A stretch of DNA of 64,000 nt from Candidatus Uhrbacteria bacterium (GCA_016187515.1 JACPJN010000006.1:192856-256855); one strand, 5' to 3'; numbered from the stretch's first letter, positions 1,591 to 64,000 are shown. Numbers and translations: made by a program. Notes: generated by a model not told the origin, from the sequence alone.

Positions 1591-1600
1591 GGGATCAAAA

Positions 1601-1674: not shown

Positions 1675-1797
1675 ATGTTTCACCATCCTACCGCATGGAT
1701 GGGAAAAATTCAAGTGTAAAAAAGCCAGCGTGTACCGTACCCGCGAGGGGTTGGGTAAAACGCCGGCGGACTTGGCTGAACTTGACTGAAGGAGCGC

Positions 1798-7824: not shown

Positions 7825-8070
7825 AAGGAACGGAAAAATACTATCCCTATATTGCATCCAAAGAGCTTAATCTGCAGATTTTGCCAAAATAAAATACAGC
7901 CCCTACTCCCTTGCGGGAGACGCCACCATGAAGGCGACTAGTCAGGGCTGTATCAATTCCACTATCACCATACCATAAGATACAATATCTGTCAAGACAA
8001 CGGTGGGGATAAGTCATGCATAGCAACAATATGATAACGCAATAACTTAATAACCAAATAACTCATCAAT

Positions 8071-31568: not shown

Positions 31569-32432
31569 GTGCATATGCATATTCATGACGATAAGATCAA
31601 GGAGTTAGAAGAGAAAGCTCTCCAGGTGCGCGAGCTTATCATTGATATGCTTGTCGCGGCGGGCTCCGGCCATTCGGCCGGCCCCTTGGACATGGCCGAC
31701 ATTTTTGTCGCGCTATATTTTCATATTCTGCACCATGATCCGAAAAACCCGGACTGGCCCGAACGCGACCGGCTGATTTTATCCTGCGGCCATATTTGTC
31801 CGGTGCGTTATGCAACTATGGCGCTCGCGGGATATTTTCCAATTGAAGAATTAAAGACGCTGCGCAAGTTCGGCACGCGCCTGCAAGGGCACCCGGAACG
31901 CCTGCGTCTTCCCGGATCCGAGACCACTTCCGGCCCGCTTGGCGCCGGACTGGCACAATCCTGCGGCCTGGCCTACGCCGCGCGTATGGACGGCAAGACC
32001 TGGCGTACTTATTGCATTACCTCGGACGGCGAGCATGAAGCCGGATTGCATTGGGAAGCCGTGCTGTGGGCCGGAAAATATAAACTTTCTAATTTGACGT
32101 GCATTGTAGACCGCAATACCATTCAAATTGACGGCGGGACCGAGGAGATCATGCCGCTTGAACCCCTGCGCGCCAAATACGAGGCCTTTAATTGGCATGT
32201 GCTGGAAGTCGGCGGGCACAATCTGGAACAATTTGTTGACGCGGTGGAAGAAGCCAAATCCATTTTGGAAAAACCCACGGTCATCATCGCGCACACCATC
32301 CCCGGCCGCGGCGTTTCGTTCATGGAGAAAAAATTCGAATGGCACGGGATCCCGCCGAATAAAGAACAAGCGGCCCAGGCATTGCGTGAACTACGCACTC
32401 TTGGAGGTAAGATTACTTCGGAGCACGAGTGA
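31569..32432 (+). CDS. tkt: transketolase, N-terminal (TPP-binding) subunit
   Basis: GSGHSAGPLDMADIFVALYF...GHPE....TTSGPLGAGL matches Transketolase_N. This is the split form. Confidence 0.8.
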   Translation: MHMHIHDDKIKELEEKALQVRELIIDMLVAAGSGHSAGPLDMADIFVALYFHILHHDPKNPDWPERDRLILSCGHICPVRYATMALAGYFPIEELKTLRKFGTRLQGHPERLRLPGSETTSGPLGAGLAQSCGLAYAARMDGKTWRTYCITSDGEHEAGLHWEAVLWAGKYKLSNLTCIVDRNTIQIDGGTEEIMPLEPLRAKYEAFNWHVLEVGGHNLEQFVDAVEEAKSILEKPTVIIAHTIPGRGVSFMEKKFEWHGIPPNKEQAAQALRELRTLGGKITSEHE

Positions 32433-32934: not shown

Positions 32935-33927
32935 ATGCCGGTAAGCCAAACTGCTAAATTAGTGCCCACACTGTTTGACACCCAGTCCCTCAAACAAGTA
33001 CCCACCAGAGATGGCTACGGTCTTGGCATAGTTGAAGCCGGAAAGGAAAACCCCAACGTCGTCGTGCTTTGCGCGGATCTTACCGAATCCACGCGGAATT
33101 TGGAATTTAAAAAACAATTTCCCGACCGGTTTATCCAGTGCGGGGTGCATGAGCAATTTCTGGCTGCCGCCGGAGCCGGGCTTGCGCTGGCCGGAAAAAT
33201 TCCGTTTATCTCCTCGTATGCGATGTTTTGCCCGGGCCGCGCCTGGGAACAAATCCGCACCAACATTTGTCTTAATGAGGTAAATGTCAAAATCGCCGGG
33301 GCCCACGCCGGGGTCTCCGTCGGCCCGGATGGCGCAACGCATCAAGCCATTGAGGATATCGCGATCATGCGCCCGATTCCCAATATGCAGATTATCGTGC
33401 CCTGTGATATGATTGAGACGCGCAAAGCCACACTCGCTGCCGCGAAACTCCCCGGCCCTTTCTACGTGCGCTTCGCGCGCGAAAAGTCGCCGGTTTTTAC
33501 AACCGAAGAAACGCCTTTTGAATTCGGGAAGGCCACGGTGTTTCACGATGGGAGCGACGTGGCAATTGTGGCCTGTGGACCGCTTGTCCATGAAGCAATG
33601 CTTGCCGCGCGAGAACTGGAAAAAAGGAAAATCTCCGCGCGGGTCATCAACTCGCACACTGTAAAACCCCTTGATGAAGACACAATACTAGCCGTGGCAG
33701 AAGAATGCGGCGCAATCGTTACAGTAGAAGAGCACCAAATCACCGGCGGACTGGGCGGGGCGATTGCAGAGTTTCTGGTCAAACACGCGCCAGTGCCGAT
33801 CGAAATGATCGGTATCCAAAACTTATTCGGCCAAAGTGGAAACCCTCGGGAACTTTTAGAACATTACGAACTCACCGCCCCGCATATCGTAGAATCCTGC
33901 CTAAGAGTACTGGCAAGGAAAAAATAA
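32935..33927 (+). CDS. tkt: transketolase, C-terminal (pyrimidine-binding) subunit
   Basis: ...CGVHEQFLAAAGAGLALAGKIPFISSYAMF...GPDGATHQAIEDIA matches Transket_pyr plus the C-terminal domain. Confidence 0.8.
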   Translation: MPVSQTAKLVPTLFDTQSLKQVPTRDGYGLGIVEAGKENPNVVVLCADLTESTRNLEFKKQFPDRFIQCGVHEQFLAAAGAGLALAGKIPFISSYAMFCPGRAWEQIRTNICLNEVNVKIAGAHAGVSVGPDGATHQAIEDIAIMRPIPNMQIIVPCDMIETRKATLAAAKLPGPFYVRFAREKSPVFTTEETPFEFGKATVFHDGSDVAIVACGPLVHEAMLAARELEKRKISARVINSHTVKPLDEDTILAVAEECGAIVTVEEHQITGGLGGAIAEFLVKHAPVPIEMIGIQNLFGQSGNPRELLEHYELTAPHIVESCLRVLARKK

Positions 33928-34061
33928 CCCTCTCTTTAACATACCTTATGGCCTTCCACCCCAAACCCTCCCGTCCAACGGCTTTTCTTTTTCCGCCCTT
34001 GCGCGCGCCGGAGGAAAAAGGCGATTTTCGCCAAGAAATTTCCTGGCGCATCTTTCGCATC

Positions 34062-34661
34062 ATGGCCGAATTTATTGACGGTTTTCAGTTTTTGGCCGAC
34101 CTTAAAAAAGAAGTAAGTTTTTTCGGCTCCGCGCGGTTCAAGCCGTCCAACAAGCACTACCGCGAAGCGGAGAAACTCGCGCGGATGCTCGGCAAAGCCG
34201 GATTTACCGTAATTACCGGCGGCGGTCCGGGAGTGATGGAGGCGGCGAACAAGGGGGCAATTGAAACCGGCGCGGAGTCGGTCGGACTGAATATTCAGCT
34301 CCCGAAAGAACAGCGGGTTAACCGGTATGTAAAGCATGGCATTGGTTTCCATTATTTTTTTACCAGAAAAGTTATGCTCTCGGCTTCGGCGCAGGCCTAC
34401 GTATTCTTTCCCGGCGGATTTGGAACGCTTGATGAAATGTTTGAACTCATTACGCTTATTGAAACGGAAAAAGCCGAGCGCATCCCTATTGTACTTATCG
34501 GCAAGGATTACTGGAGCGGACTGCTTAGCTGGATTGAAGAACAAGTATATAAAAAACACCACGCGATAGAAAGGGGAGACATGAAAATTTACACGCTGGT
34601 GGACTCGGTGGAGGAGGCGTATGAGATTGTGGTGAAGTCAAAAGAACGAGCGTATTTCTAG
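34062..34661 (+). CDS. LOG-family protein (cytokinin riboside 5'-monophosphate phosphoribohydrolase-like)
   Basis: SFFGSAR....VITGGGPGVMEAANKGA...PGGFGTLDEMFE is the TIGR00730 signature. The ORF-track start at 33705 overlaps tktC by 220 nt and is rejected. An alternative start is 33948. Confidence 0.7.
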   Translation: MAEFIDGFQFLADLKKEVSFFGSARFKPSNKHYREAEKLARMLGKAGFTVITGGGPGVMEAANKGAIETGAESVGLNIQLPKEQRVNRYVKHGIGFHYFFTRKVMLSASAQAYVFFPGGFGTLDEMFELITLIETEKAERIPIVLIGKDYWSGLLSWIEEQVYKKHHAIERGDMKIYTLVDSVEEAYEIVVKSKERAYF

Positions 34662-38494: not shown

Positions 38495-38529
38495 TACTCA
38501 TTTTAGGTGCGATCGCAAATAAATGAGTA
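38495..38529. repeat. 35-nt hairpin repeat, copy 2
   Basis: Identical to 22714-22748. It overlaps the 5' end and leader of the PaaX-like gene. Confidence 0.6.
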
Positions 38530-39130
38530 TGAGAAAGCGCGTACGCGAGTGAGTATGAAATCAAAATTTAGACAATTTCAAATCGTCTTGCTGCAAATCT
38601 ACGCCGGATATCGCGAGCTTGATCATGCGCTTGCCTCATACAATCCGCGCAGCCACACACCTGGCTGGGATGCCACCGGCTATGCAGAGGACGCGCGCAA
38701 ATATGCAAAGCGGGATATAAAGCGACTCCATCGCCATATTGATTATCTCAAACGAGTCGGCTATGTAGAGCGCGTCCAAGAAGGTGAGGAGCAACTCTTG
38801 AAATTAACGGCCAAAGGCAAATACGAACTTCTTCGTTTGCGCTTTGTTGAACACCTGATGCAACAAAAGAAAGAGTTATGGGATCGCAAATGGTGGATCG
38901 TGATTTTTGATATTCCGGAACAAATGAAAAAGTACCGCAATTTTTTCCGCCTCCTTCTCAAAAAGAATGGTTTTAAAATGGTTCAGCGCTCGGTATGGAT
39001 CACGCCCTACAATCCGCGACCTTACATTAATGATCTTTTAGTATACCTTCGCCTTTCTAAATACTTCGAAATCATTGAAGCCGACTGCGATCGTTGTAGC
39101 CCAGCGCTTTTTAAAAAATTCAAACCGTAA
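38507..39130 (+). CDS. PaaX-like transcriptional regulator: N-terminal winged HTH plus a PaaX_C-type C-terminal domain
   Basis: The wHTH region reads IDYLKRVGYVERVQEGEEQLLKLTAKG. The C-terminal part WDRKWWIVIFDIPEQMKKYRNFFRLLLKKNGFKMVQRSVWITP follows the PaaX C-domain pattern (W.G.W.L...IPE...R..L...L...GF..L...VW). The true start may be MKSKF at 38557. Confidence 0.5.
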   Translation: MRSQINEYEKARTRVSMKSKFRQFQIVLLQIYAGYRELDHALASYNPRSHTPGWDATGYAEDARKYAKRDIKRLHRHIDYLKRVGYVERVQEGEEQLLKLTAKGKYELLRLRFVEHLMQQKKELWDRKWWIVIFDIPEQMKKYRNFFRLLLKKNGFKMVQRSVWITPYNPRPYINDLLVYLRLSKYFEIIEADCDRCSPALFKKFKP

Positions 39131-42922: not shown

Positions 42923-44326
42923 TCAAAGCAATTTTTTCTGCGCGGCTTTTTCTTGCTCATCAAAAATATTTACCACCCCGTACTCGCCGTCATAACCGGG
43001 CGGATCGATTTTAACTTTTCCATCGCGCACTCTTTTTATTGCTTCCGCCAGGCGCGGCGAGGCAATAGCCGCGATCTCTTGCGGCAGTAGATTCAAAAGT
43101 AAATTCAGCTCTGTCCCCGCTTTCGCGACTAAATCCCAATACACTTTCTTCACGCTTTTCGCGCTTCTTCCTTTTACTCCTTCGGCTTCGGCAATAATTT
43201 TATCCAGTTCAATAAGCGGCCAAAATTGCGGGTGCGCGAGCGGAACACGGCCGGCTGGCTCATTGGCCAACTCCTCCACGCGCGAAAGCACGCCGACGGT
43301 TACGAGTTTTTTGCATTTCGGACAAATGCCGCCTAACTTCTTGGTTTCTTTAGGATGCAAGCACGCTTTACACGCGCGATGGCCGTCATAATGATAACGG
43401 CCTTCGTCGGGAATGAACTCCAGAGTGCCGGACATCCGCAATCCGCCCCCTCCCCTAACCCCTCCCACCGAGGGAGGGGGATCCTTTTTTACTCCCTCTC
43501 CCTTTATGGGAGAGGGCTGGGGTGAGGGTGGTTGCGTCAACTTCGCAGGTGCAGCATTGCGTATCGCCTCCATGATGGCATCGTACGACAGCGCACTCTC
43601 GCTTCCCTCAAACACGGTTGCCTCTCTTCCCAGGTTTGGCAATGAGTGAGCATCGGCAAAAGAGACCAGCGCCACGCGGTCAAGTTCGCGCACGCGCCAG
43701 CACATTGGCGGATCGGCGGACAGCCCGGTTTCAATGGCAAAAATATGCGGAGTCAATTCTTCAAAACACTCTTTAATGGAATCAAACCCGGAATTGGATC
43801 CGAAGATCGCAAACCAAGGAGTAAAAGCATGCGCCGGGATCATCACATTGCGCGGGTCAATCCCTAAAATAATTTTCAACAGCTCTTTTGAGCTCATGCC
43901 GATGATGGCGCGCCCATCTGATCCTAGTTTGCACCCGCGCGTGAGTAGCGCGGCATTTATTTCCCCCGCCACCTTTATCGAAGGCGCGTAAATACAATGA
44001 TGCACCCTTCTCACTTTGCGTGCACCTTGAGAGTAAATACACGCCAGCTCCGTGCCCAGCATGAAAAGCGTGGGCTTTTTAGGCAGAGGAATTGGCGGGG
44101 GCGAGGTTGGCGCGCCTCCATCCCGCAACACATACAAGCTCTCTCGGCCGCTCGGAACTAACTTTTCCTTGATCTCCTCAAACCATTTTGTATGCGTAAA
44201 GTCGCCGGCAGAAACAATATCCACGCCTTTAACCCGGCACCAGGCGTCGATATTTTCAAGGGTAAGCGCCGGTGAACACGCGCGGGCGTATTTTGAATGC
44301 GTGTGGAGATCGGCAATGAATCGCAT
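42923..44326 (-). CDS. PHP-domain nuclease, Endonuclease Q-like, with a C-terminal Zn-ribbon
   Basis: N-terminal MRFIADLHTHSKYARA (PHP His motif). C-terminal CKACLHPKETKKLGGICPKCKK. There is a large palindromic insertion at 43444-43533. Confidence 0.45.
   Translation of the reverse strand: MRFIADLHTHSKYARACSPALTLENIDAWCRVKGVDIVSAGDFTHTKWFEEIKEKLVPSGRESLYVLRDGGAPTSPPPIPLPKKPTLFMLGTELACIYSQGARKVRRVHHCIYAPSIKVAGEINAALLTRGCKLGSDGRAIIGMSSKELLKIILGIDPRNVMIPAHAFTPWFAIFGSNSGFDSIKECFEELTPHIFAIETGLSADPPMCWRVRELDRVALVSFADAHSLPNLGREATVFEGSESALSYDAIMEAIRNAAPAKLTQPPSPQPSPIKGEGVKKDPPPSVGGVRGGGGLRMSGTLEFIPDEGRYHYDGHRACKACLHPKETKKLGGICPKCKKLVTVGVLSRVEELANEPAGRVPLAHPQFWPLIELDKIIAEAEGVKGRSAKSVKKVYWDLVAKAGTELNLLLNLLPQEIAAIASPRLAEAIKRVRDGKVKIDPPGYDGEYGVVNIFDEQEKAAQKKLL
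43444..43533. repeat. Palindromic element in-frame in the EndoQ-like gene
   Basis: The sequence ccgccccctcccctaacccctcccaccgagggaggggg...ccctctccctttatgggagagggctggggtgagggtgg encodes PSPQPSPIKGEGVKKDPPPSVGGVRGGGG on the minus strand. Confidence 0.6.
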
Positions 44327-44338
44327 AATTCTAGAACG

Positions 44339-45103
44339 CTACAATCCTCTCTCCCCCGGCCCAACATACTCCGCCTCCTCCTCCGTAAGCCGGCGCAAAC
44401 CGTTTTTACTCATCATTTCCTCGTAAATATGGGCGACCAGCCCGGGCACACGTCCAACAATGAAAAAACCTTTGGCCACTTTCCAATCAAATCCCATATC
44501 CGAGATGATGGCGCCCATGGCGCCGTCCACATTCAGCGGAAGTTTTTTTGAAGAAATCGCATTGATCTCCTCGCTCGCCTTCCGGGCAAACGCGCAGTGC
44601 TGCCCATAAAATCCGGTTTCCTTCGCAATCTCAAACAACGCTTCAGAGCGCGGATCATGGTCTAAAATTTTATGCCCATATCCGGGAATACGAATTTTTT
44701 CCTTGCGCAGGCGCGCGACCAGCCCGGCCGCATCCGGCTCGCTGGCGTGCTCTTGAAAAAATTTCGCCGCGTCTTCAATCGCGCTGCCGTGGAGCGTTCC
44801 CATCGCAAGAATCCCGGCCGCCAGCGCGGTATGCAAACTGTTGCCGGTGGAGACCACCGTGCGCGCGGTCATGGCCGAAGACACTCCGATCCCGTGATCA
44901 ATCGCGGCGGTAAACAAGGCATTCATCATCCGCGTTTCCCTGGCCTTTGGCAACTCTCCTTTAAGTACCAAAAAAATCACTTCCACAAAACTTTTTTCGC
45001 GGATAAGCTCTTTAAGATCATATCCATAAATTAACTCTTTTCCGTCTTGGACGTGACTGATGGCTGTGCTCCATTGCATAATTGTAAAATTTTTACGCGC
45101 CAT
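44339..45103 (-). CDS. citrate-synthase-like small protein (citryl-CoA lyase-type)
   Basis: A 254-aa protein with the citrate synthase signature region IPGYGHKIL and the catalytic His/Asp context. Its size matches CCL, the AclA C-domain homologue. Confidence 0.55.
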   Translation of the reverse strand: MARKNFTIMQWSTAISHVQDGKELIYGYDLKELIREKSFVEVIFLVLKGELPKARETRMMNALFTAAIDHGIGVSSAMTARTVVSTGNSLHTALAAGILAMGTLHGSAIEDAAKFFQEHASEPDAAGLVARLRKEKIRIPGYGHKILDHDPRSEALFEIAKETGFYGQHCAFARKASEEINAISSKKLPLNVDGAMGAIISDMGFDWKVAKGFFIVGRVPGLVAHIYEEMMSKNGLRRLTEEEAEYVGPGERGL

Positions 45104-45116
45104 TACGCGCTGCGCT

Positions 45117-46013
45117 TCATGAATAATCCTTTACCAACTCGGCCAATTGTTCATATTGTTCCGCGATCATCACCCCCGCATCGGCCAGCGCTTTTTCTTT
45201 TTCGGCCGCGCCGCGCCCGCGCTCCACAATCGCTCCGGCATGTCCGATATTCATCCCGACCGGCAGCGCGCTGGCGAATTTGCCCCCCACATACACTGCC
45301 AGCGGTTTGGTAAATTCTTTATTTTTCAGCATATCCACGATCTCAAACTCATAACTTCCGCCATGCTCGCCGAAAATTACGACGGCCTTGGTTGAATCAT
45401 CTTTCGCAAATAATCGCAGCAGATCTTTGTAGGTCGTGCCCAGGAGTAAATCTCCTCCCACATGCACCGCCGCGCTTTGCCCCATCCCGGCGCGCCGCAC
45501 TTGCCAGGCCACTTCATTGGTCATCCCGCCGGAACGCGAAATAATGCCAATGCTTCCGGGCGTAAAAATCTCGTCCGTAAGATTTTTCGGCCCGCCGACC
45601 ACCCCGATGCGTCCGACGCCCGGCACAATGTAGCCAAGCGATGCCGGACCAATTATCTGAATTCCTTTTCCCTTGGCCGCGGCAAAACAATAGGCGGTAT
45701 CTTGAATGGGAATTCTCTCGACAATCACATTAATTTGCGGAATATTATTTTCTATTGCTTCCAGTATAGCAGATTTGGCGGCAAATGGCGGCACGTAGAT
45801 CGCACTCACCTCCACACCCCCTAGAATATCCACGGCCTCTTGGACTGAATTGAACACTGGCTTGCCTAAAACGGTCTCCCCGCCTTTTCCCGGACGCACG
45901 CCGCCAACCACCCTGGTTCCATACTCCAGCATCGCCGCCGCCGCCTTCTGCCCTTCTTTGCCGGTAATGCCTTGGATCAGCACTTTTGTATCATTGTCTA
46001 TCAAAATCCCCAT
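45117..46013 (-). CDS. succinyl-CoA synthetase alpha-like (CoA-binding) subunit (SucD/CcsB/AclA-N-like)
   Basis: VLIQGITGKEGQ, SRSGGMTNE, and the phospho-His loop GHAGAIV. Confidence 0.75.
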   Translation of the reverse strand: MGILIDNDTKVLIQGITGKEGQKAAAAMLEYGTRVVGGVRPGKGGETVLGKPVFNSVQEAVDILGGVEVSAIYVPPFAAKSAILEAIENNIPQINVIVERIPIQDTAYCFAAAKGKGIQIIGPASLGYIVPGVGRIGVVGGPKNLTDEIFTPGSIGIISRSGGMTNEVAWQVRRAGMGQSAAVHVGGDLLLGTTYKDLLRLFAKDDSTKAVVIFGEHGGSYEFEIVDMLKNKEFTKPLAVYVGGKFASALPVGMNIGHAGAIVERGRGAAEKEKALADAGVMIAEQYEQLAELVKDYS

Positions 46014-46059
46014 ACCTGTGCTTAATTTCTCAATGCTAATGACTTAATTATCAAATTAC

Positions 46060-47211
46060 TTAATTACTATGAGCTACCATCTCCGTCAGAACTTTTGCCG
46101 TCTCGGACATGCTGATTTCCTTTCCGAACAGTTTCATCTTGAGATTATTGCGTTTCGCGCACGCTTTGAGAAGCGCCAGGCCTTCTTTTTCATACGGCCC
46201 CGCGCGGCGCGCCACAATCGGATACGCCGGTCTTATTTCATCAAGCGCGTCCGCAATTCCTTGAAACGTGTCTTTCACGCTGGTAAAATTCGCAACCCCG
46301 CCGGCGATCCAAAGTCCGCGCAGGCCCGGCTTGGAAAGCACAATTTTTGCAAGCGCGTATACTTTTTCCCGCGGAGGATTGCCGGAATACTCGGTATAGT
46401 TGGCGGCCTGAAGTCCATGCTTTTCAAGCGCGTCCATATTCGCAATGCTGGCCCCGCCGCCGGAAAACAAAATCGCGATATCGCCGTCCATTTCAAGGTA
46501 CTTTCCGGCGGTACCGCGGTACCACGCCTCGCCTTCATCTATTTTCTTAACCTCCACTTCCCGTTTAGTGGGCAAACGTCCCAGCATGGTGCGCGGCGGA
46601 AAATTCTTCCATTCTTCATGGCGAAACCACGCGTCATCATCCAGCGCCACTTTCGCGTCGGCCGCGATCCAGCGGCCGTCTTTTGTCTTGACCAGTGGAT
46701 TAATCTCCGCCAGCCGAGCGTCTTCTTTTAAAAAACAATTCCACAATTCTTGCGCGCAAGGTACATCCACAGCAAGGCGATCACTCTTAATGCTTAATTC
46801 ATAATTCTTAATTCTTTCTCTCGGCACCTCTTCAATATCCACCCCGCCCTCTTCACTATAGATCAACACCGGCGCTTTCGCGCTGGTATCATAAGTAATG
46901 GAAACATAATGCTCCTGCGCAATATCTAATTTCTCTTCAATGCGCACCGCGGCAACATATTGCCCGCGGAGGTTTACGGAAAGTAATTCCTCCGCCGCCT
47001 GCCTCACTTCTTCTTCAGAAGAACAAAAACGAATTCCCGCGTTTTTCCCGCGCTTCCCGGAGAGCACTTGCGCTTTGGCCACCACCTCTTTTATCCCCAA
47101 CTCCTGATATTTACGAACCGGCTCCTCGCCGCGGTGAATACACAAACCCCGGGGAATCTTTATCCCGTGTTTTTGAAATAATTTTTTTCCTTCACATTCG
47201 TACAGGTTCAT
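46060..47211 (-). CDS. succinyl-CoA synthetase beta-like ATP-grasp subunit (SucC/CcsA/AclB-like)
   Basis: MNLYECEGKKLFQKHGIKIP...ATP-grasp....GGGASIANMD. I place the start at the MNLYE methionine. Confidence 0.65.
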   Translation of the reverse strand: MNLYECEGKKLFQKHGIKIPRGLCIHRGEEPVRKYQELGIKEVVAKAQVLSGKRGKNAGIRFCSSEEEVRQAAEELLSVNLRGQYVAAVRIEEKLDIAQEHYVSITYDTSAKAPVLIYSEEGGVDIEEVPRERIKNYELSIKSDRLAVDVPCAQELWNCFLKEDARLAEINPLVKTKDGRWIAADAKVALDDDAWFRHEEWKNFPPRTMLGRLPTKREVEVKKIDEGEAWYRGTAGKYLEMDGDIAILFSGGGASIANMDALEKHGLQAANYTEYSGNPPREKVYALAKIVLSKPGLRGLWIAGGVANFTSVKDTFQGIADALDEIRPAYPIVARRAGPYEKEGLALLKACAKRNNLKMKLFGKEISMSETAKVLTEMVAHSN

Positions 47212-47275
47212 AATTGGTAGTCCTCTCAATGTTCGTGCTTTTTCGTGTTCAAGTTCGTGTTCAAGGTTCGTGGCC

Positions 47276-47614
47276 CTACAACTCCATCCGAAACGCCGCG
47301 CCGTACTTTTTCAAGCCCAGCCGCTCATACAGCTTCTGCACTTTCGGACGCGAATCGCGACTGGTGGCGACTATTTTATAACACCCCCGCGCTTTTGCTT
47401 CTTCAACCGCCGCGCGTATTAACTGTGTACCAATACCCTTTCCACGATAGGACTCCTCTATAAATACATCTTCAAGTAATCCGTACGGCTGGTCATGCAA
47501 ATCGTTGGTAATCAGAAAAAGATAGGCGCGTCCAAACGCGCGCGCGCCTTCCTTGACCACGATTTTAATCGCGTAACTTTGCCGGGTTTCTTTTTCGATT
47601 TGCGTTTCAGACAT
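47276..47614 (-). CDS. GNAT-family N-acetyltransferase
   Basis: The acetyl-CoA binding motif A reads RGKGIGTQLIRAAVEEAKARG. Confidence 0.7.
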   Translation of the reverse strand: MSETQIEKETRQSYAIKIVVKEGARAFGRAYLFLITNDLHDQPYGLLEDVFIEESYRGKGIGTQLIRAAVEEAKARGCYKIVATSRDSRPKVQKLYERLGLKKYGAAFRMEL

Positions 47615-47617
47615 ACG

Positions 47618-48580
47618 CTAAACCGCAAGGTAATCCTTTAAAAACGGGCCGAGTTTTTTCGGATCTCCGCCGCCGCCTTCTTTTTCAAAATCAGCGCCCA
47701 GAACTGCTTTGGCTTTCACATTATCCTTATCTCTAACCATTGGCCTCCAGCGCTTCTTTTCCAATTCCCTTTTTTCCGGCGCGGAAAATTCATGGGTACT
47801 ATAGATGACCGCATCAAGAGGGCGGGGCAGATACTTCTGCAGTTGCGCGGCAAAATCACTTAACTTCTCCGGCCCGGTCTCTCCGTCCGCTTCATAGCAG
47901 CTGCCAATTATATACACGAGTTTTGCCTTGGAATACGCCAAGGCCTGCGCCGCTCCGCCAACCAGCATATTGGGAATAATACTGGTATATAAACTTCCGG
48001 GACCAAAACAGATGTAATCCGCGGACTCAATAACCTGTTTGGCATCTTTGGTGATTGCCGCTTCCGGTTCCAGCCAGGCCTTGACAATTTTTTTTGAACG
48101 ATCGTACTGCGGAACATCAATTTCGGCCTCGCCTTTGATGACCTCTCCGCTTGCCAGCTCCACGCACAAATCCGTCAAATCCATACTTACCGGATAAACG
48201 CGGCCGACCGCCTCTACGGCCTGCTCCAGCGCGCGCACCGCGTCCGTTATTGTTCCATACTTTCCGCCAAGCGCCAAAAAGAGATTGCCAAGATTATGCT
48301 GATCTAACGCGCCGGCATCGGCAAATCGATTTTTATAAAAAATGCTTTTCAGCAGCGCGTAGTCATAGCGCGATAAACTCAAAACCGCGCGCATAATATC
48401 GCCGGTCGGAATTACCCGCAGCTCACGGCGCAATCTGCCGGACGAACCGCCGGAATCACTGGTTGAAATAACCGCATTAAGTTCAATTTCATCAACCTGC
48501 GGTTTCAGCGCCTGCAAACATACGGCGGTTCCATTCCCTCCGCCGATAACCACAATTCGCTTTTTCGCCTCCTGATTCAT
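47618..48580 (-). CDS. YvcK/CofD-like (UPF0052) gluconeogenesis-factor family protein
   Basis: IVVIGGGNGTAVCLQAL....VISTSDSGGSSGRLRRE...IPTGDIMRAVL. Confidence 0.7.
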   Translation of the reverse strand: MNQEAKKRIVVIGGGNGTAVCLQALKPQVDEIELNAVISTSDSGGSSGRLRRELRVIPTGDIMRAVLSLSRYDYALLKSIFYKNRFADAGALDQHNLGNLFLALGGKYGTITDAVRALEQAVEAVGRVYPVSMDLTDLCVELASGEVIKGEAEIDVPQYDRSKKIVKAWLEPEAAITKDAKQVIESADYICFGPGSLYTSIIPNMLVGGAAQALAYSKAKLVYIIGSCYEADGETGPEKLSDFAAQLQKYLPRPLDAVIYSTHEFSAPEKRELEKKRWRPMVRDKDNVKAKAVLGADFEKEGGGGDPKKLGPFLKDYLAV

Positions 48581-48606: not shown

Positions 48607-50463
48607 TTATTCCACCGTCACGCTCTTCGCCAAATTTCTCGGACGATCGACGTCCCGTCCCAGCAAAGCGGCCATATAGTACGCCAACAGCTGCAACGGA
48701 ATGGTGTTGATCAGCGGCGCGGTGAGTTCCATGGTTGGCGGCACATAGATTACATCTTCGCTCAACTCCCGCGCCCAAACATCGCCTTCGGTTGCCACGA
48801 TAATCACGGGCGCCCTTCTGGATCGAATCTCTTCAATATTGCTGCACATTTTAGAGTACATCTGGTCTTGTGTCGCGATCGCCACCACCGGAAAATTTTT
48901 GGAAAGCAGCGCGATCGGGCCATGTTTCATTTCTCCGCCGGGATAGGCCTCGCTGTGAATATAGGAAATCTCTTTGAGTTTGAGCGACCCCTCCAGCGCT
49001 ACGGGAAAATTTATCCCTCGTCCGAGGTACAGCGCGTGTTCGATGCCTTTATACTTTTGGGCAATACGCTCAATGTCGCCGCCGCGGGACAAAATTGTTT
49101 CAATCTGGCCCGGGGCCTTGGTAATTGCCTGAAGCAGCCGCTGGCCGGTTGCCACCGTGACTCTTCTTAGTCGTCCAAACTGCAGCGCGTATAAAAGCAG
49201 TACCGCGACCATATTGGTATAGGCCTTAGTGGACGCGACCGCAATCTCCGGACCAGCGTGGATATAGGTCCCGCCATCGGATTCCCGCGCGATAGTGGAT
49301 CCGATAACATTCACGATACCGCGGACGTACGCGCCCTTGCGCTTTGCTTCGCGCAGCGCCGCGAGCGTATCCGCGGTCTCTCCGGATTGCGACACCGCAA
49401 ACACGAGCGTATGTTGGTCAACAATCGGATCGCGATAGCGAAATTCGCTGCCCACATCAATTTCGGCCGGTATTCCCGCTAACCGCTCAAAAGCATACTT
49501 GCCAACCATCGCGGCGTAGGAAGCCGTACCGCAGGCGATCAGCGATACGCGCTTAACTGCCCGCATTTCATCTTCGCTCATATTCAGTCCGCCCAGATGC
49601 GCGGCGCCTTCTTCCATATTAAAACGGCCCCGAATCGCGTCTTTGAGCACGGTGGGCTGATCAAAAATTTCTTTAAGCATAAAGTGCGGATACCCTTGTT
49701 TTTGCGCTTGCTCATCATTCCAGTCCAGCTCTTCAATATGCTTATCCACGATCGCGCTTTTCAGATTCACCACCGGCAGACGATCACGAAACACCGTCGC
49801 GATTTCCCCGTCATTCAAAAATATGACGCGCTTGGTATAGGGCAGCATGGGGGTGGCGTCACTGGCAATAAAATGTTCGCCATCGCCGACCCCGATCACC
49901 AATGGACTTCCTAAACGCGCGGCAACAATCTCGTCCGGGTGCGCGCGGTGCATGACTGCCAAACCATAAGTTCCGCACGCATGCTGAAGCGCGGAGCTTA
50001 CCGCGGCGCGTAAATCCCCTTTATAATGAGTTTCAATAAGATGCGCGAGAATTTCCGAATCGGTTTTGGATTGCAGCGCGTGTCTTTCACCAAGACGCGC
50101 GCGAATCTCGCGATAATTTTCAATAATGCCGTTGTGCACCAGCATCAGGTCGCCCGTGCAGTCCGTATGCGGGTGCGCGTTTTCTTCGGTAATCCAGCCG
50201 TGAGTGGCCCAGCGGGTGTGCGCGATGCCCAGGGTGCCGCCAGTCAATTTGCCGCCTTGCCGCACCCGTTCATCCAGCGCGTCAATTCTACCCACGCTGC
50301 GCACGCGCTCCAGCACTGGACTACTATACTCTAAATTCTGCTTTCTAGATTCTAAGATGGCGACTCCCGCGCTGTCATACCCGCGATATTCAAGACGGCG
50401 CAGGCCTTGGAGTAAAATCGGCAGAGCCGGCTGCTTCCCAATATATCCTACAATCCCGCACAT
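48607..50463 (-). CDS. glmS: glutamine--fructose-6-phosphate aminotransferase
   Basis: MCGIVGYIG at the N-terminus (Ntn Cys1), two SIS domains, and C-terminal ...SVTVE. Confidence 0.85.
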   Translation of the reverse strand: MCGIVGYIGKQPALPILLQGLRRLEYRGYDSAGVAILESRKQNLEYSSPVLERVRSVGRIDALDERVRQGGKLTGGTLGIAHTRWATHGWITEENAHPHTDCTGDLMLVHNGIIENYREIRARLGERHALQSKTDSEILAHLIETHYKGDLRAAVSSALQHACGTYGLAVMHRAHPDEIVAARLGSPLVIGVGDGEHFIASDATPMLPYTKRVIFLNDGEIATVFRDRLPVVNLKSAIVDKHIEELDWNDEQAQKQGYPHFMLKEIFDQPTVLKDAIRGRFNMEEGAAHLGGLNMSEDEMRAVKRVSLIACGTASYAAMVGKYAFERLAGIPAEIDVGSEFRYRDPIVDQHTLVFAVSQSGETADTLAALREAKRKGAYVRGIVNVIGSTIARESDGGTYIHAGPEIAVASTKAYTNMVAVLLLYALQFGRLRRVTVATGQRLLQAITKAPGQIETILSRGGDIERIAQKYKGIEHALYLGRGINFPVALEGSLKLKEISYIHSEAYPGGEMKHGPIALLSKNFPVVAIATQDQMYSKMCSNIEEIRSRRAPVIIVATEGDVWARELSEDVIYVPPTMELTAPLINTIPLQLLAYYMAALLGRDVDRPRNLAKSVTVE

Positions 50464-50570: not shown

Positions 50571-51548
50571 TTATCCCTCCACGCTGCGCCCGATCAAATG
50601 AGCAATCACCCCAGCGAGCTTTCGCGGAGAATGGCGAACCAGCGGCGGTTCCGAAAGGTAGTCGCCGCCTCGCAGGGTACGGCCTTCCAGCCGCGCAAGA
50701 TCGCCGGCCGGGATCGGGTAAGCGCGATCCTCTTGGGCATACTGTTCTGCGCGCTGCTCATCCAGAACGCCGGTATTATAGAGGACGCAATCAATGCGAT
50801 TCTTCAGATACTGCTCCAGTGTATCCACCAGTTCAGGCACGGTAAAACCGTCGGTCTGGCCTTTCGTGGTCACCAGATTACAAACGGCGATAATCCGCGC
50901 TCTACTTTCCGCGATGGCCGCTACGACCCCGCCCACGAGCAGGACCGGCACCACGCTGGAGAACAAATCTCCCGGACAGAGAATAATGTAATCCGCGCGG
51001 CGAATCGCCTCGGCTGCCGCGCCCAGCATCAGCGCGTTTGGTTTGAGCCATACTTCCCGAATCCGGTCATGGTCGCCAAGCATACCGCGCAGTTCGTCAA
51101 ACTGCGCTTCCCCATGGATCTCGGCTCCGTCAAGAGAACGTCCATGGAGGGTAATACTTCCGACGGTCACCGGCAGGACGTGGCATTCCGGGGAAATCTG
51201 CAAGATTTGTTCCAGATACGCGATCGCCTCCAAAAAACTGCCGGTGGTCTGGTGCAAAACAGTGAGCAGCCAGTTACCCGCGTTGTCGCCTTCCAAAGAT
51301 CCGCCGGCAAAGCGATGACGAAGCAGGGTGCGCGCGGAATCGCCCGGAAGGCCAGAGAGCGCCAGCAAACACTGGAGCACATCCCCGGGCGGAAGCGCGC
51401 CGTACTTGTCGCGCAAGCGTCCGGAACTGCCTCCGGAATCGGCCATGGAAACAATGGCCGTAACGTCCACGCCGGCAATGAGCTTACAGGCGCACAACGT
51501 CATGTAGTGGCCGGTACCGCCTCCCAGCGTGACGACTTTCGCATTCAT
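50571..51548 (-). CDS. YvcK/CofD-like family protein (second paralog)
   Basis: VVTLGGGTGHYMTLCA...VSMADSGGSSGRLRDKYGALPPGDVLQCLLAL. Confidence 0.65.
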   Translation of the reverse strand: MNAKVVTLGGGTGHYMTLCACKLIAGVDVTAIVSMADSGGSSGRLRDKYGALPPGDVLQCLLALSGLPGDSARTLLRHRFAGGSLEGDNAGNWLLTVLHQTTGSFLEAIAYLEQILQISPECHVLPVTVGSITLHGRSLDGAEIHGEAQFDELRGMLGDHDRIREVWLKPNALMLGAAAEAIRRADYIILCPGDLFSSVVPVLLVGGVVAAIAESRARIIAVCNLVTTKGQTDGFTVPELVDTLEQYLKNRIDCVLYNTGVLDEQRAEQYAQEDRAYPIPAGDLARLEGRTLRGGDYLSEPPLVRHSPRKLAGVIAHLIGRSVEG

Positions 51549-51948: not shown

Positions 51949-52761
51949 TCAAATAGGCAACCGGCGGGTATGCCAGCGCGCCAGCTCGTCAATCTTATCC
52001 TGCATGATTTTTTCCGCGATTTGCAGCTGCTCCGGCGTATTGATTCCCAGCGCTTCCTGGGGATTTTCAAGCTGGATATCCCTGACCAGCCGCCCCTCCC
52101 TAAGCGCCAGATCCACCAAATCAGTCAGATAATATTCATGCTGAACATTTTCGCGCGACAACTTGGGAAGCGCCGACCAAAGCCAGCCGGCGCGGAAAAT
52201 ATAATAGCCCGGATTTACTTCGGTAATCGCGCGCTCGGAAGACGCGGCCTCTTTTTTCTCAACAATCGCAACCAGCTCTTCTTTCGGCCCCCGGATAATC
52301 CGGCCATAACATTCAAAAAGATTAAACCAGTCGTCAAAATGCGGCAAGCGCAGCGTGGCTAAAGTCAGATCGGCTCCGCTTTGCAAATGATTGACCACCA
52401 ATTCATCTATGGTGCGCGCGGAAACCAGCGGGTGATCGCCGTAAAGTACCAGGATATGATCGTACTTAAGCAATTTTTCCTTTGCCGAAAGAACGGCGTG
52501 GCCGGTTCCCAGTTGAACTTCTTGTATCGCGTAATCGCAGACCGGACCGATCCGATCGCGAATAACGTACAGATCCGGCGCGATGACGATAACCGGCTTG
52601 GTCGCCACCACGCTCTCTTTCAAGCTTTCAATCAGATATTGCAAAAGCGGTTTTCCCAAAAGGGGAATCAAAACCTTGGGCTGATCGATAGTCGCGTTAA
52701 GCCGCTTGCCCTTTCCCGCGGCCAGGATCACAATGCCGATATTCTTCAAAGGGTCAACCAT
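51949..52761 (-). CDS. sugar-1-phosphate nucleotidyltransferase (GlmU N-domain-like) without an acetyltransferase domain
   Basis: The G-rich NTP-transferase loop reads GIVILAAGKGKRLN. The ORF is 270 aa with no left-handed beta-helix repeats. Confidence 0.65.
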   Translation of the reverse strand: MVDPLKNIGIVILAAGKGKRLNATIDQPKVLIPLLGKPLLQYLIESLKESVVATKPVIVIAPDLYVIRDRIGPVCDYAIQEVQLGTGHAVLSAKEKLLKYDHILVLYGDHPLVSARTIDELVVNHLQSGADLTLATLRLPHFDDWFNLFECYGRIIRGPKEELVAIVEKKEAASSERAITEVNPGYYIFRAGWLWSALPKLSRENVQHEYYLTDLVDLALREGRLVRDIQLENPQEALGINTPEQLQIAEKIMQDKIDELARWHTRRLPI

Positions 52762-53486
52762 AATTTTTCAAAGACCATCCGGTGCGCATGGGCAATGTTA
52801 GGATCTTCTACCACCACGCCCAAAGGCGTGGACGCGCTATCAATACTGATATGCGCGGTTTTCGGACCATAGATTAAAGTATAGGCCGGAGAGCCGCCGT
52901 CTTTGGTCAGCCACTTGCGTTCCGACAAAGGATGTTCTTTGCCGCCCTCGCCTAAAGCGATCACTTTGACAATAATGCCGCGCTTGATTCGCTCGCGGGT
53001 AAAATTTGGAAAACTTTTATGAAGAAAATCTCGCAGATTCGCCGAAGAGTACACATAGTATTCTTTCTGCTTTTCTTTGCTCATGGTGGCCAGCACTCCT
53101 TGAAGGATATTTTTTACACCCGGGAATCCTTCGTAGTAGCGCGCCACGGGCTTGCCGCCACCGCGGTTGTACATGGATTGGAGTTCGGGGATAATCGTTT
53201 GGATACTCTGTCGCAGCCGGCTCAATTCTTCAAGGCGTCCATCTAAGTGCCGTTCCAATTTCAAAGGATCCTCGGCAAAAAAGTACTGATGCTTTTCTTT
53301 GTGGTGATAAACTACCAATCCTTGCTTCATCAAATGCTTCAAAATGTCGTAAGTGGTGCCGCGATTGATGCCGGTGGCCTGCGCGATCTTGCGCACCGGA
53401 GAGGGCCCCAGCGAAAGCAAAATCAAATACACCCGAATATCTTTTTCGTCAAAACCGAGTTTTTTGAGAATTTGGACAATGTCCAT
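52746..53486 (-). CDS. TrmB-family sugar-responsive transcriptional regulator
   Basis: N-terminal wHTH (LGFDEKDIRVYLILLSLGPSPVRKIAQATGINRGTTYDILKHL) plus the TrmB C-domain. Confidence 0.65.
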   Translation of the reverse strand: MDIVQILKKLGFDEKDIRVYLILLSLGPSPVRKIAQATGINRGTTYDILKHLMKQGLVVYHHKEKHQYFFAEDPLKLERHLDGRLEELSRLRQSIQTIIPELQSMYNRGGGKPVARYYEGFPGVKNILQGVLATMSKEKQKEYYVYSSANLRDFLHKSFPNFTRERIKRGIIVKVIALGEGGKEHPLSERKWLTKDGGSPAYTLIYGPKTAHISIDSASTPLGVVVEDPNIAHAHRMVFEKLWLTL

Positions 53487-53655
53487 AGCGATTGGAAATT
53501 GGATGATTCGAAGATTGGGAGATTAGCAATTAGAGCCGTAATTAACAAATTATCCAATTATCTAATCTTCCGCCATAATTGTCAAGAAATTCCCTGCACA
53601 ATCTGTGGATAAGTCAAAAACCGTACAAAATAGGGGTTTATCTAGTATTTTTATG

Positions 53656-61423: not shown

Positions 61424-61543
61424 TGCCGGCATAGCCTACTTTCCCGGGACCGGATTGGGTCCGAGTATCATCGGCCTTGGATGCTTTCACTTCCGTGTTC
61501 GGAATGGGAACGGGTGGGTCACACCGAAATTAAACACCGGCAA
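61424..61543 (-). rRNA. rrf: 5S ribosomal RNA
   Basis: The reverse complement reads TTGCCGGTG...CCGTTCCCATTCCGAACACGGAAGTGAAAGC...GGAAAGTAGGCTATGCCGGCA. Helix I pairs its ends. Confidence 0.75.
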
Positions 61544-61799
61544 ATCTGGGGTGCTTTTTAGTATTGTTGTAAGAGTAATCACATCGCTCGCTCCGCTCGC
61601 TCTGTGTACGAATTACAAATCTTGTACGAATATTACGAATGTTGTCAATTCAAATTCGTAGTATTCGCAACGCCATTCGTTGATTCGTACACAGGAAGCG
61701 CCGGAGGCGCTGAATCCAAATTAGTGCTTCAGTGCTTTTGGATCGATTAGTACCGCTCGGCTCAAACCGTTACCGGTCTTACACCTGCGGCCTATCGCC

Positions 61800-61920
61800 A
61801 GCGCTCCGCGCTGCAAATCCCAAATTACAATTTCCAAATCCCAAACAAATTTTAAATCCCAATTTCTAAATTCCAATTTTGTGATTTGGAATTTATGATT
61901 TGGGTATTGTTTGTAATTTG
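61800..61920 (-). repeat. AT-rich simple-repeat expansion segment inside the 3'-terminal 23S rRNA region (H98 variable region)
   Basis: tttggaat/aatttggg-type repeats are inserted between two conserved blocks: one ending ...ccaataaccaagcacc and one starting ggccgcaggtgtaagaccgg. Confidence 0.5.
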
Positions 61921-62005
61921 GTGCTTGGTTATTGGAATTTCCAGTGCGAAGCACTGGTTTTACCTGGTCATCTCCCAGGGATCCATAAGACCTAATCTTG
62001 AGGAC

Positions 62006-62044
<39 letters not shown>

Positions 62045-62169
62045 AACGCTGCTACCGAGCAATGCCCTTGGTAGAACAACTCGTACACAGGAGGTTCGTG
62101 CCTTTTGGTCCTCTCGTACTGAAAAGGCGCCCTCTCAAGTCTTTACGCCCGCGGCAGATAGGAGACCGA

Positions 62170-62922
62170 CAAATTTGTTATCCGCCTTAGGCGGAGCATG
62201 GACATTTCTGCCATGCTCTGCATGTCGCCATGCAGTTCGGACTATATCTTCTTGTCAACATGGTTGACGAGTTCGACGTATAGTCTCTGAGGGTTTTACT
62301 TTATCTCATCTAGTGGTCGCTTTCGATAGCGACCGGCACCATTCATAGTATATGCAAGTTTGATAATTTTCATCAAACCGTCTTTCCTTCGGTGTTGATT
62401 ATCTGACATCATGCGAACTACTTCCGCAAATATCTGAAAATCTTTTACCTTTTCCGTACACAGTGCATGGGCACGGAAAAAAGGAATAATTTTGGTGAGG
62501 AGATCGTTGCGATCTCGCACCACATATACATAGGTACTGTCTCGTGGATTTGTTGGATGATTTGCCTTCACATATCCGCAACGAAAGAATGAAACAAGCG
62601 CATCAAGCACTCGCCGACTTGATATTCGTTGTGACACATGAAATTCTGGAATAATTTTCCAGCCGGTTGTCATGCGCGGGTCTTTATACGCCGCGATATG
62701 AAAACTCCCTTCCCCATCAACAAAACCAGTTACGTACCATGGTTTTAGACGATAACGTAATCTTCCCTGCTGATTATCTGCACTCAACACTTTTTCACCT
62801 GACATACCTCTATAGTATACCAGGTAGTGTGAGATTCTTCAAACTCCTACTCCTGTTTGGAGTTTTGCCAGAACTTCCAGCATATAGTCGAATTTATAGA
62901 CAGCAAGGTCTTACTGTCTCAC
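62170..62922 (-). mobile_element. group I intron in 23S rRNA (after about U2604, E. coli numbering) carrying a LAGLIDADG homing endonuclease gene
   Basis: The exon junction is GTGAGACAGT|...|TCGGTCTCC. The intron ends in G (caaatttG). A conserved core AAGATATAGTCC sits near its 3' end. Confidence 0.55.
62296..62805 (-). CDS. LAGLIDADG homing endonuclease (intron-encoded)
   Basis: The LAGLIDADG motif reads YVTGFVDGEGSF. The protein is 169 aa. Confidence 0.8.
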   Translation of the reverse strand: MSGEKVLSADNQQGRLRYRLKPWYVTGFVDGEGSFHIAAYKDPRMTTGWKIIPEFHVSQRISSRRVLDALVSFFRCGYVKANHPTNPRDSTYVYVVRDRNDLLTKIIPFFRAHALCTEKVKDFQIFAEVVRMMSDNQHRRKDGLMKIIKLAYTMNGAGRYRKRPLDEIK

Positions 62923-62933
62923 GCATGTATTCC

Positions 62934-63164
<231 letters not shown>

Positions 63165-63177
63165 TGGCGAACAGCCA

Positions 63178-63224
<47 letters not shown>

Positions 63225-63633
63225 TACATTAATCCATAATTTCGTATGGTGCAGACTATATCTTCATCTTGCTCTGGATCGTAGTCCCGCGGACGCGGGA
63301 CATAATCTTCAGTTTGATGTTAGCAAGCGTCGGCGTATTATTCCTCTCCGCCACATGGCGGATATGGAATCTCCCCTTTCGGGTCAGTCGTTACGGGGTC
63401 ATTGTGAACATTTGACACTTGACCTTTGACATTTGACCAACCACTAAAAAGGTTGTCAATTGTCAGGTGTTAGATGTCATTTGTTACAAGCGGACTTCCC
63501 ACGGTATTGCCCTTCCGCTTGAGGCGGAGTCGGGGTTCACCGTTATAAGCCGATTTTATGGTCTCTATCTAACTATTTTGGTTTGACGAAAAAACCAGGA
63601 AACAAATCACTTTGCATGCACCCCGATATGTTA
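63225..63633 (-). mobile_element. group I intron in 23S rRNA at the L2449-equivalent site (no ORF)
   Basis: The exon junction is GGTTTGGCACCT|...|CGATGTCGGCTCATC. The intron is about 409 nt with the AGATATAGTC core element. Confidence 0.55.
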
Positions 63634-64000
63634 AGGTGCCAAACCTCCTCGTCGCTATGGGCGCTTGGAGGAGATCAGCCTGTTATCCCCGGAGTAGCTT
63701 TTATCCGATGAGCTTCAGCGGTCCTATGACCGACTGTCGGATCACTAACTTCTACTTTCGTATCTGCTCGTCTTGTAGGACTTGCAGTTAAGCCAGCTTT
63801 TGCGTTTGCACGTCATGCTCGATTTCCATCCGAGCTAAGCTGACCTTTGTAAACGCCTCCGTTACCTTTTAGGAGGCATCCGCCCCAGACAAACTGCCTA
63901 CCAGGCCCTGTTCCTCGGCGTCGATTCAGGCGCAAAGGTAAGGAGCAAATTATAGAAAGGGTGGTGTTTCATTGTCGCCCGCCTAACTTTTTGGACACCA

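Follow-up and report, generated by a model that had tools for sequence, protein, structure and literature searches.

A stretch of 64,000 nucleotides from Candidatus Uhrbacteria bacterium (GCA_016187515.1, JACPJN010000006.1:192856-256855; hereafter the window) carries three consecutive genes that very probably encode the two subunits of a citryl-CoA synthetase (CCS) and a citryl-CoA lyase (CCL), judged by sequence comparison. Together they would amount to an ATP-citrate lyase (ACL) split into three polypeptides. In members of the candidate phyla radiation (CPR), to which this bacterium belongs, such a trio often adjoins genes for the synthesis of UDP-N-acetylglucosamine (UDP-GlcNAc). We lean, with modest confidence in the statement as a whole, to the reading that this CCS/CCL-type trio cleaves citrate to acetyl-CoA for the N-acetylation of amino sugars, and we propose that in this CPR lineage it is not part of a tricarboxylic acid (TCA) or reverse TCA cycle. 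The reading rests on homology, conserved residues, clade membership and gene order, from which we infer the substrate, the direction of the reaction, the co-transcription of the genes and the acceptor of the neighbouring acetyltransferase.

The citryl-CoA synthetase and lyase gene trio

The three genes named in a preliminary description of the window are borne out by the list of open reading frames (ORFs): all are intact, run in one direction on the minus strand and have the coordinates given there. CCS-beta, a CcsA-like large subunit of 383 amino acids (46060-47211, minus), combines an ATP-grasp domain with an ACL-type citrate-binding domain. Its ORF reaches back to TTG 47229, the outer limit adopted in that description, and ATG 47211 is preceded by the Shine-Dalgarno sequence GAGAGGA; since the TTG lies inside this ribosome-binding site, 47211 should be the real start. 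CCS-alpha, a CcsB-like small subunit of 298 amino acids (45117-46013, minus), has a CoA-binding domain and the phospho-His loop GHAGA with H258. Ccl (44339-45103, minus) is a truncated citrate-synthase fold with H105, H144 and D193; it spans 254 amino acids, but probably 246, from ATG 45079, because the homologues and the NCBI gene call begin at M9 (MQW...). The two motifs that had been singled out before were both found, GHAGA at alpha residues 257-261 and IPGYGHKIL at CCL residues 139-147. By Pfam, beta contains ATP-grasp_2 and Citrate_bind, alpha contains CoA_binding and Ligase_CoA, and the match of the third protein to Citrate_synt is confined to the C-terminal part (profile positions 163-354 of 357). 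The E-values of these matches, 1e-23 to 1e-42, are far past chance.

CCS-beta falls below both NCBI cut-offs for SucC, the beta subunit of succinyl-CoA synthetase (SCS), with 229 bits against 370 and 224 against 376, and its citrate-binding domain is recognized as that of ATP-citrate lyase (Citrate_bind, E = 4e-29). The top match among solved structures is the large subunit of Hydrogenobacter thermophilus CCS (6hxq_B, 223 bits), followed by Thermus SCS-beta (166 bits) and Chlorobium AclB (145 bits). The protein was also scored against 1.84 billion cluster representatives, and 126 near-full-length matches were aligned with it and five references. In a neighbor-joining tree of these 132 sequences (50 bootstraps), it lies in a clade of 69 leaves together with CcsA and AclB (92% bootstrap), and every SCS reference lies outside. 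Supports inside this CCS/ACL clade are poor (0-30%), and therefore we make no claim on whether the CPR proteins are nearer to CcsA or to AclB.

The carboxylate site points in the same direction. CCS-beta carries the motifs EYSG, GGVANFT and VARRAGP. The CcsA and AclB references share ANFT (or ANNT) and RRxGP with nearly all representatives of the clade, and no SCS sequence has them; where these motifs stand, the SCS references and the representatives that resemble them show FGGI(V/T)RC and VRLxGT. Moreover, 120 homologues of beta all have G277, N308, T310, R335 and R336. Four of these, G277, N308, T310 and R336, align with G309, N346, T348 and R379 of human ACLY, which we take to be its citrate contacts. 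The contact residues reportedly come from an ACLY-citrate structure of Sun et al. in 2010.

The total scores of alpha are ambiguous, with 230 bits to the archaeal SCS-alpha of Aeropyrum, 199 bits to CcsB and about 200 bits to E. coli SucD, and it stays below the SucD cut-off (278 bits versus 336). Because the total score fails to separate SCS-alpha from CcsB, motifs and indels were used. The CcsB-type reference was the alpha of a related locus (L091), which adjoins an Aquificota-type CcsA and scores 393 bits to 6hxq_A. Four alignment features are common to the window alpha, this reference, a DPANN alpha and related alphas and are not found in SCS-alpha. These are YVPP where SCS-alpha has FVPAP, SRSGGMTNE where it has SRSGTLTYE, an insertion of 4-6 residues after GVVGG where it has none, and, ahead of the phospho-His loop, KFASALPVGMNIGHAGA, which is 3 residues longer than the RTAPPEKRMGHAGA of SCS-alpha. 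Thus alpha is also predicted to be of CCS type by its motifs and insertions, although the total score does not set it apart from SCS-alpha.

The third protein passes the NCBIfam model for citryl-CoA lyase (NF004869, 296 bits, cut-off 212). With the solved CCL of H. thermophilus (6hxp) its score is 246 bits; no citrate or methylcitrate synthase exceeds 84 bits, and the C-terminal module of AclA reaches 78 bits. Its assignment as a lyase against citrate synthase or AclA rests on these margins (246 versus 84 and 78 bits). The best citrate-synthase-type model gives 109 bits with a cut-off of 421, and the protein is far below all such cut-offs. The equivalents of the citrate-synthase triad, H105, H144 and D193, do not vary among 114 homologues and are the same in H. 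thermophilus Ccl.

Domain content, scores, the tree of beta, the motifs and indels of alpha and the curated CCL model therefore support the split ATP-citrate lyase reading already given in the preliminary description. The outcome that would have contradicted it, two subunits within true SCS and a third protein within citrate or methylcitrate synthase, did not appear: beta lies outside the SCS references in the tree, alpha has CcsB-type motifs and insertions, and the third protein scores far higher to CCL. The statement that the window holds no other TCA genes holds in a Pfam scan of nearly every ORF of at least 150 amino acids, setting aside those inside a longer opposite-strand ORF; the other long ORFs encode tRNA synthetases, pentose-phosphate and glycolytic enzymes and glycosyltransferases. 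Proteins identical to those of the window are on record under Candidatus Uhrbacteria, which places the window in the CPR. On the other hand, to call the trio unexpected was an overstatement, since PGAP and IMG already annotate such proteins as CCL or CCS and a preprint lists CPR homologues. According to that preprint of 2022 (10.1101/2022.10.25.513756), sequences from CPR and DPANN that carry SCS or citrate synthase annotations are monophyletic with CCS or CCL. NCBI names the protein identical to our third one citryl-CoA lyase and labels the window beta 'hypothetical protein'; IMG names several homologues of beta citryl-CoA synthetase large subunit, and some databases call such homologues 'succinyl-CoA synthetase beta'. 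The enzyme system is already known and annotated, and the window trio is a further instance of it.

Gene order in the window and in related loci

To compare gene order, an alignment scan with CCL was made over one genome per GTDB species. It returned 350 stretches with a relative, and the counts given here are those of the best 80 loci, which by record title are mostly CPR, the rest including Aquificota, Zixibacteria and one DPANN locus. Neighbours were located by tblastn with the window proteins, and loci with enough upstream sequence were counted as eligible. CCS-beta and/or CCS-alpha adjoin CCL on one strand in 63 of the 80 loci. Upstream on the same strand, GlmS was found in 38 of 44 eligible loci, a YvcK-like gene in 42 of 49 and a GNAT in 39 of 54. 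The genes mostly run TrmB, HAD, GlmU-N, GlmS, (HAD), YvcK, GNAT, beta, alpha, CCL; this order persists to 47% CCL identity, and Pfam-annotated contigs agree with it. It is seen in many Magasanikbacteria-titled loci and in one locus each under the titles Kerfeldbacteria and Parcubacteria, and one titled Uhrbacteria has a reduced form. The GlmU-like ORF is 251-284 amino acids long in 29 related loci and thus has no LbH acetyltransferase domain. Many records of metagenome-assembled genomes with the CPR-typical operon are titled 'uncultured Gammaproteobacteria bacterium' (L011, L012, L015, L018, L021, L025 and others) and one is titled 'Candidatus Udaeobacter sp.'; their proteins are 50-80% identical to those of Uhrbacteria and Magasanikbacteria, and the titles are evidently placeholders or mis-assignments.

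In the window, the co-directional block lies on the minus strand and begins with a TrmB-family sugar-type regulator (52746..53486, Pfam TrmB), which recurs at the block head in related loci. It is followed by a GlmU-like protein of 270 amino acids (51949..52761), which has the uridylyltransferase domain only (GlmU model positions 3-242 of 447, no LbH), by a YvcK/GlmR-like protein of the CofD family (50571..51548; TIGR01826, 238 bits, cut-off 196) and by GlmS, glutamine--fructose-6-phosphate aminotransferase (48607..50463; NF001484, 777 bits; TIGR01135, 755 bits). Then come another YvcK/GlmR-like protein of the CofD family, which is a UDP-GlcNAc-binding family (47618..48580; TIGR01826, 205 bits, cut-off 196), and a mini-GNAT N-acetyltransferase of 112 amino acids (47276..47614, Pfam Acetyltransf_1) directly upstream of CCS-beta. 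The gaps in this upstream block are 3-107 nt, except for one gap of 400 nt and one overlap of 16 nt. The best sigma-70-like site of the region, weak evidence for a promoter because such sites are no more frequent than in shuffled sequence, is TTGACA-17-GATAAT with 11/12 matches (53557..53585, minus), upstream of trmB.

The mini-GNAT is the proposed consumer of the acetyl-CoA made by the trio. Its AF2 model (pLDDT 95) has the GNAT core but not the N-terminal b1-a1-a2. Searches with it matched GNA1 of six species (E 1e-13 to 1e-5) among polyamine, aminoglycoside and N-terminal acetyltransferases.

More distant relatives of beta (50-52% identity) place the trio in other surroundings. In L094 and L096, a GFO/IDH/MocA oxidoreductase, an LbH (hexapeptide) acetyltransferase and a glycosyltransferase lie on one side of the trio and a DegT aminotransferase on the other, inside a glycan cluster with Wzy and glycosyltransferases. 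In L093 and in L095, the latter from Sungbacteria, the trio borders clusters of a nucleotide-sugar epimerase and glycosyltransferases. These surroundings are counted as independent contexts. Malic enzyme was found 2-9 kb downstream of CCL in seven loci (L021, L025, L042, L043, L044, L050 and L053) and not in the window. CCS genes were absent within 10 kb of CCL, with ample flanks, in all eight Aquificota loci and in all but one of the other loci that lack CCS.

The trio itself is interrupted in many CPR relatives, with insertions of 0.3-3 kb between beta and alpha or between alpha and CCL (L012, L022-L024, L026, L035, L036, L044, L049 and L052). Some inserted ORFs recur: one, immediately ahead of alpha, encodes a multi-pass membrane protein that begins MYQKIK..YYQNSP; another, located between alpha and CCL, encodes a secreted or anchored protein with VGF(A/V)PS.GLWF; and a third, of 276 amino acids, lies on the opposite strand in both L026 and L044. 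Taken together, the inserted ORFs are a mixed set of hypothetical, membrane or secreted proteins without an evident connection to the trio. The operon tolerates repeated gene insertion.

Downstream of the trio, 12 nt from ccl, lies a gene for a PHP-type, TIGR00375/MJ0043-like protein of 467 amino acids (42923..44326, minus), which matches TIGR00375 partially and holds a low-complexity Pro/Gly-rich insertion. A homologue stands downstream of the trio in many related loci, and Pfam MJ0043_C is among the neighbours in L008-L010. We take this family to be endonuclease-Q-like, and the protein is probably unrelated to the trio in function.

Proposed role and alternatives

The mechanism that we propose follows that of the H. 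thermophilus enzymes and ACLY, which have been characterised, and rests on the conserved residues. ATP in the ATP-grasp domain of beta would phosphorylate His258 of alpha, and the phosphate would move to citrate in the citrate-binding domain of beta (G277, N308, T310, R335/R336). Attack of CoA on the citryl-phosphate (thiolysis) would give citryl-CoA, which the lyase would cleave in a retro-Claisen reaction with H105, H144 and D193 to acetyl-CoA and oxaloacetate. The trio, as the last biosynthetic genes of the conserved co-directional block, would in this way supply acetyl-CoA from scavenged citrate, and the acetyl-CoA would go into the N-acetylation of glucosamine phosphate and thereby into UDP-GlcNAc and peptidoglycan precursors. 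Since the GlmU-like gene lacks the acetyltransferase domain, a separate acetyl-CoA-dependent transferase should be needed; an operon with GlmS, such a GlmU and a separate GNAT therefore implies an N-acetylation step. The oxaloacetate would be disposed of elsewhere, and malic enzyme may be a sink in several relatives. Also in favour of this reading are the mildly exergonic values for cleavage at both steps (PMC13147460, Table 1), the absence of TCA genes from the Pfam scan of the window and the analogous supply of acetyl-CoA and oxaloacetate proposed for Nanohaloarchaea (PMC4766312). The physiological guess made earlier, acetyl-CoA from citrate, is compatible with this evidence.

Several observations weigh against amino-sugar acetylation as the role of the trio. 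The free energies in the cleavage direction are -5.9 +/- 3.9 kJ/mol for CCS and -2.1 +/- 3.9 kJ/mol for CCL (PMC13147460, Table 1), so that the reaction is near equilibrium and its direction is not fixed by the sequence. The acceptor of the GNAT is not singled out either: single-sequence and profile PDB searches, NCBIfam, AF2 and Foldseek gave generic GNATs with GNA1 among them, and the protein is predicted to be without the usual N-terminal acceptor-binding elements. Scans for promoters and terminators gave counts not above shuffled expectation, the only good site being the one upstream of trmB, and neither a citrate transporter nor an oxaloacetate-consuming enzyme was identified in the window. 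Moreover, the linkage to GlmS is missing in some relatives, including L013, L020 and L024, many loci have unrelated ORFs between the genes of the trio, and the synteny within one radiation is partly inherited and not independently selected.

CCS and CCL might instead serve general catabolic or anaplerotic cleavage of citrate, not coupled specifically to amino-sugar acetylation, with oxaloacetate passing to pyruvate or malate via malic enzyme and the proximity of glmS being inherited synteny. The enzymes would be the same as in the amino-sugar reading, malic enzyme lies near the trio in seven loci, some CPR loci (L013, L020, L024) are free of glmS linkage, the DPANN genes are near fumarase and succinate dehydrogenase (SDH) or pyruvate:ferredoxin oxidoreductase (POR), and a similar proposal exists for Nanohaloarchaea (PMC4766312). 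We nevertheless regard this general route as unlikely, because the order GlmS, YvcK, GNAT, CCS, CCL is kept to 47% CCL identity with very short gaps in the window, and because the trio stands beside sugar acetyltransferases in two further types of cluster. To our knowledge, CPR also have few other uses for acetyl-CoA. Another substrate pair, such as malate with malyl-CoA, citramalate or 2-methylcitrate, would make 'citryl-CoA' a mis-assignment by homology. We know of no characterised members of the CCS/CCL family other than the H. thermophilus enzymes; the CPR proteins are 50% (CCL) and about 45-50% (beta) identical to them, and little of the large CCS/ACL-type clade, about 69 clusters at 50% identity, has been studied. 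The invariance in 120 homologues of the four presumed ACLY citrate-contact positions and of the neighbouring arginine, together with a lyase that retains the citrate-synthase triad and passes the curated CCL model, makes such a substrate improbable.

The module could also run in reverse, from acetyl-CoA and oxaloacetate via citryl-CoA to citrate, with ATP made by substrate-level phosphorylation. A reverse ATP-citrate lyase is said to operate in Desulfobacter postgatei. The small overall free energy (PMC13147460) makes reversal thermodynamically possible at suitable metabolite ratios. However, no oxaloacetate source, aconitase or isocitrate dehydrogenase was found by tblastn or Pfam in the window or the flanks of related loci, and the neighbouring genes consume acetyl-CoA and do not produce it, so that we consider reverse operation quite improbable. 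Finally, an ordinary SCS with citrate or methylcitrate synthase, as remnants of the TCA cycle, or carbon fixation by the reverse TCA cycle, is hardly credible. The top total scores of alpha are indeed with archaeal SCS-alpha, and some databases name beta accordingly; but neither beta nor alpha reaches its equivalog cut-off, SucC or SucD, and beta is without FGGI(V/T)RC, has the ACL citrate-binding domain and lies outside the SCS clade. Similarly, the third protein, with its 254 amino acids and C-terminal profile match, is far below the cut-offs for citrate synthase, and no other gene of either cycle was found in the Pfam scan of the 64 kb. The pairing of SCS with citrate synthase is thus largely refuted already.

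Citrate cleavage for amino-sugar acetylation, favoured here for the window, may be extended to a wider and more tentative proposal, to which we give somewhat less than even credence. Several CPR lineages (Uhrbacteria, Magasanikbacteria, Kerfeldbacteria, Parcubacteria and Sungbacteria) may have recruited a split ATP-citrate lyase as a dedicated generator of acetyl-CoA for amino-sugar N-acetylation, co-transcribed with a UDP-GlcNAc pathway that is split as in eukaryotes (GlmS, a mini-GNAT replacing the acetyltransferase domain of GlmU, and a uridyltransferase-only GlmU) and elsewhere with diacetamido-sugar genes.

Known systems, significance and other features of the window

The closest characterised system is that of H. 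thermophilus TK-6, with CcsA/CcsB and Ccl (Aoshima et al., 2004) and the structures 6HXQ and 6HXP (Verschueren et al., 2019). It consists, like the window trio, of three separate polypeptides with equal domain content, and among solved proteins its CcsA and Ccl come closest to the window beta (223 bits) and lyase (246 bits). The CcsB-specific motifs and insertions of alpha and the citrate-site and catalytic residues are kept in the window proteins. On the other hand, the H. thermophilus enzymes work in an autotroph, as part of its reductive TCA cycle, whereas the window trio is contiguous, belongs to a non-autotroph and stands beside UDP-GlcNAc genes; in Aquificota the lyase gene stood alone in 8/8 loci. 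The window alpha (298 amino acids) is without the C-terminal extension of CcsB (353 amino acids), and the ANFT of the window beta is more ACL-like than the ANNT of CcsA. The identity of beta to its H. thermophilus counterpart given above is from the alignment.

AclB/AclA of Chlorobium limicola (6HXJ) and the single-chain ACLY would share the overall chemistry with the window proteins, as far as sequence can tell. The citrate-site motifs EYSG, ANFT and RRGGP and Citrate_bind are common to AclB, ACLY and the window beta, and the C-terminal module of AclA is homologous to the window lyase (78 bits). However, the alpha and lyase modules are fused in ACL, whereas the window genes are separate (a stop codon, with 13-37 nt between), and the window proteins score lower to ACL than to CCS/CCL. 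No AclA-like fusion of alpha and CCL was found in 61 related loci; long stop-to-stop ORFs that looked like such fusions were rejected as upstream run-on or as neighbouring genes split by an in-frame stop.

Among DPANN, Nanohaloarchaea and Diapherotrites are likewise small-genome episymbionts with CCS and CCL and without a complete TCA cycle, and a Diapherotrites beta is 49% identical to the window beta. Vavourakis et al. (2016; PMC4766312) proposed that CCS, CCL and malic enzyme of Nanohaloarchaea regenerate acetyl-CoA and oxaloacetate. Unlike in the window, in the DPANN loci examined the lyase is apart from CCS, beside fumarase/SDH or near POR, with no glmS or GNAT; one DPANN-type locus has fumarase and the SDH flavoprotein nearby, and another has POR nearby. 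As for SucCD and GltA, they share with the window proteins the superfamilies (NDP-forming acyl-CoA synthetases and the citrate-synthase fold) and the phospho-His mechanism, but the equivalog cut-offs are failed, the carboxylate-site motifs differ and beta is in a separate clade. The full citrate synthase (about 370-430 amino acids) has an N-terminal part that the window lyase (254 amino acids) lacks. Plain SucCD with citrate synthase was therefore rejected as a candidate on cut-offs, motifs, tree and protein length. Aconitase, isocitrate dehydrogenase, 2-oxoglutarate:ferredoxin oxidoreductase and fumarate reductase were found neither in the 64-kb window nor in the annotated flanks of related CPR loci.

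CPR are reported in general to lack the TCA cycle, pyruvate dehydrogenase and fatty-acid synthesis, and for this reason the source of their acetyl-CoA, needed chiefly for acetylation of cell-wall sugars, is rarely addressed. The role proposed here, if true, would give a concrete and testable answer. Citrate would then be a possible metabolite exchanged with hosts, and, on the wider proposal, the cell-wall and glycan synthesis of these symbionts would depend on citrate from the host or the environment. Moreover, an enzyme pair held as a marker of reverse-TCA autotrophy would have a different role in CPR, which matters because metagenomic surveys score matches to CCS/CCL or aclAB as evidence for carbon fixation; such calls should be made with caution. 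Autotroph surveys still place CCS/CCL in Aquificaceae and Leptospirillum only. A literature search, of incomplete coverage, for CCS/CCL linked to glmS or UDP-GlcNAc found no such paper, and the linkage to the CPR UDP-GlcNAc operon appears to be unreported as far as the literature was searched. This linkage adds to the preliminary description, which lacked it.

This stretch of contig turns up repeatedly in sequencing runs, those of the SRR121134xx series, and the window has some further features. The 3' part of the 23S rRNA gene (61740-64000, minus) contains up to three group-I-intron-like stretches (Rfam Intron_gpI, below the gathering score), one of which encloses an ORF for a LAGLIDADG homing endonuclease (62296-62805, minus); the 5S rRNA gene (61424-61541, minus) follows. 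Intron-rich rRNA is typical of CPR. ARAGORN predicted a tRNA-Ile with anticodon TAT (UAU) at 1600-1675 (minus); most bacteria read AUA by a lysidine-modified CAU tRNA. An Rfam DUF3800-IX sRNA motif (7889-7954, minus; 51 bits, gathering score 36.8) lies between ORFs without a Pfam match. A protein of 207 amino acids (38507-39130, plus) has a PaaX_M/Cas2-like central domain, with no CRISPR or cas genes nearby. Transketolase is split into an ORF for the N-terminal half, which binds thiamine pyrophosphate (31569-32432, plus), and one for the pyrimidine-binding and C-terminal half (32935-33927, plus), about 500 nt apart, and the second of these overlaps an ORF of the SLOG/LOG-like 'lysine decarboxylase' family (33705-34661).

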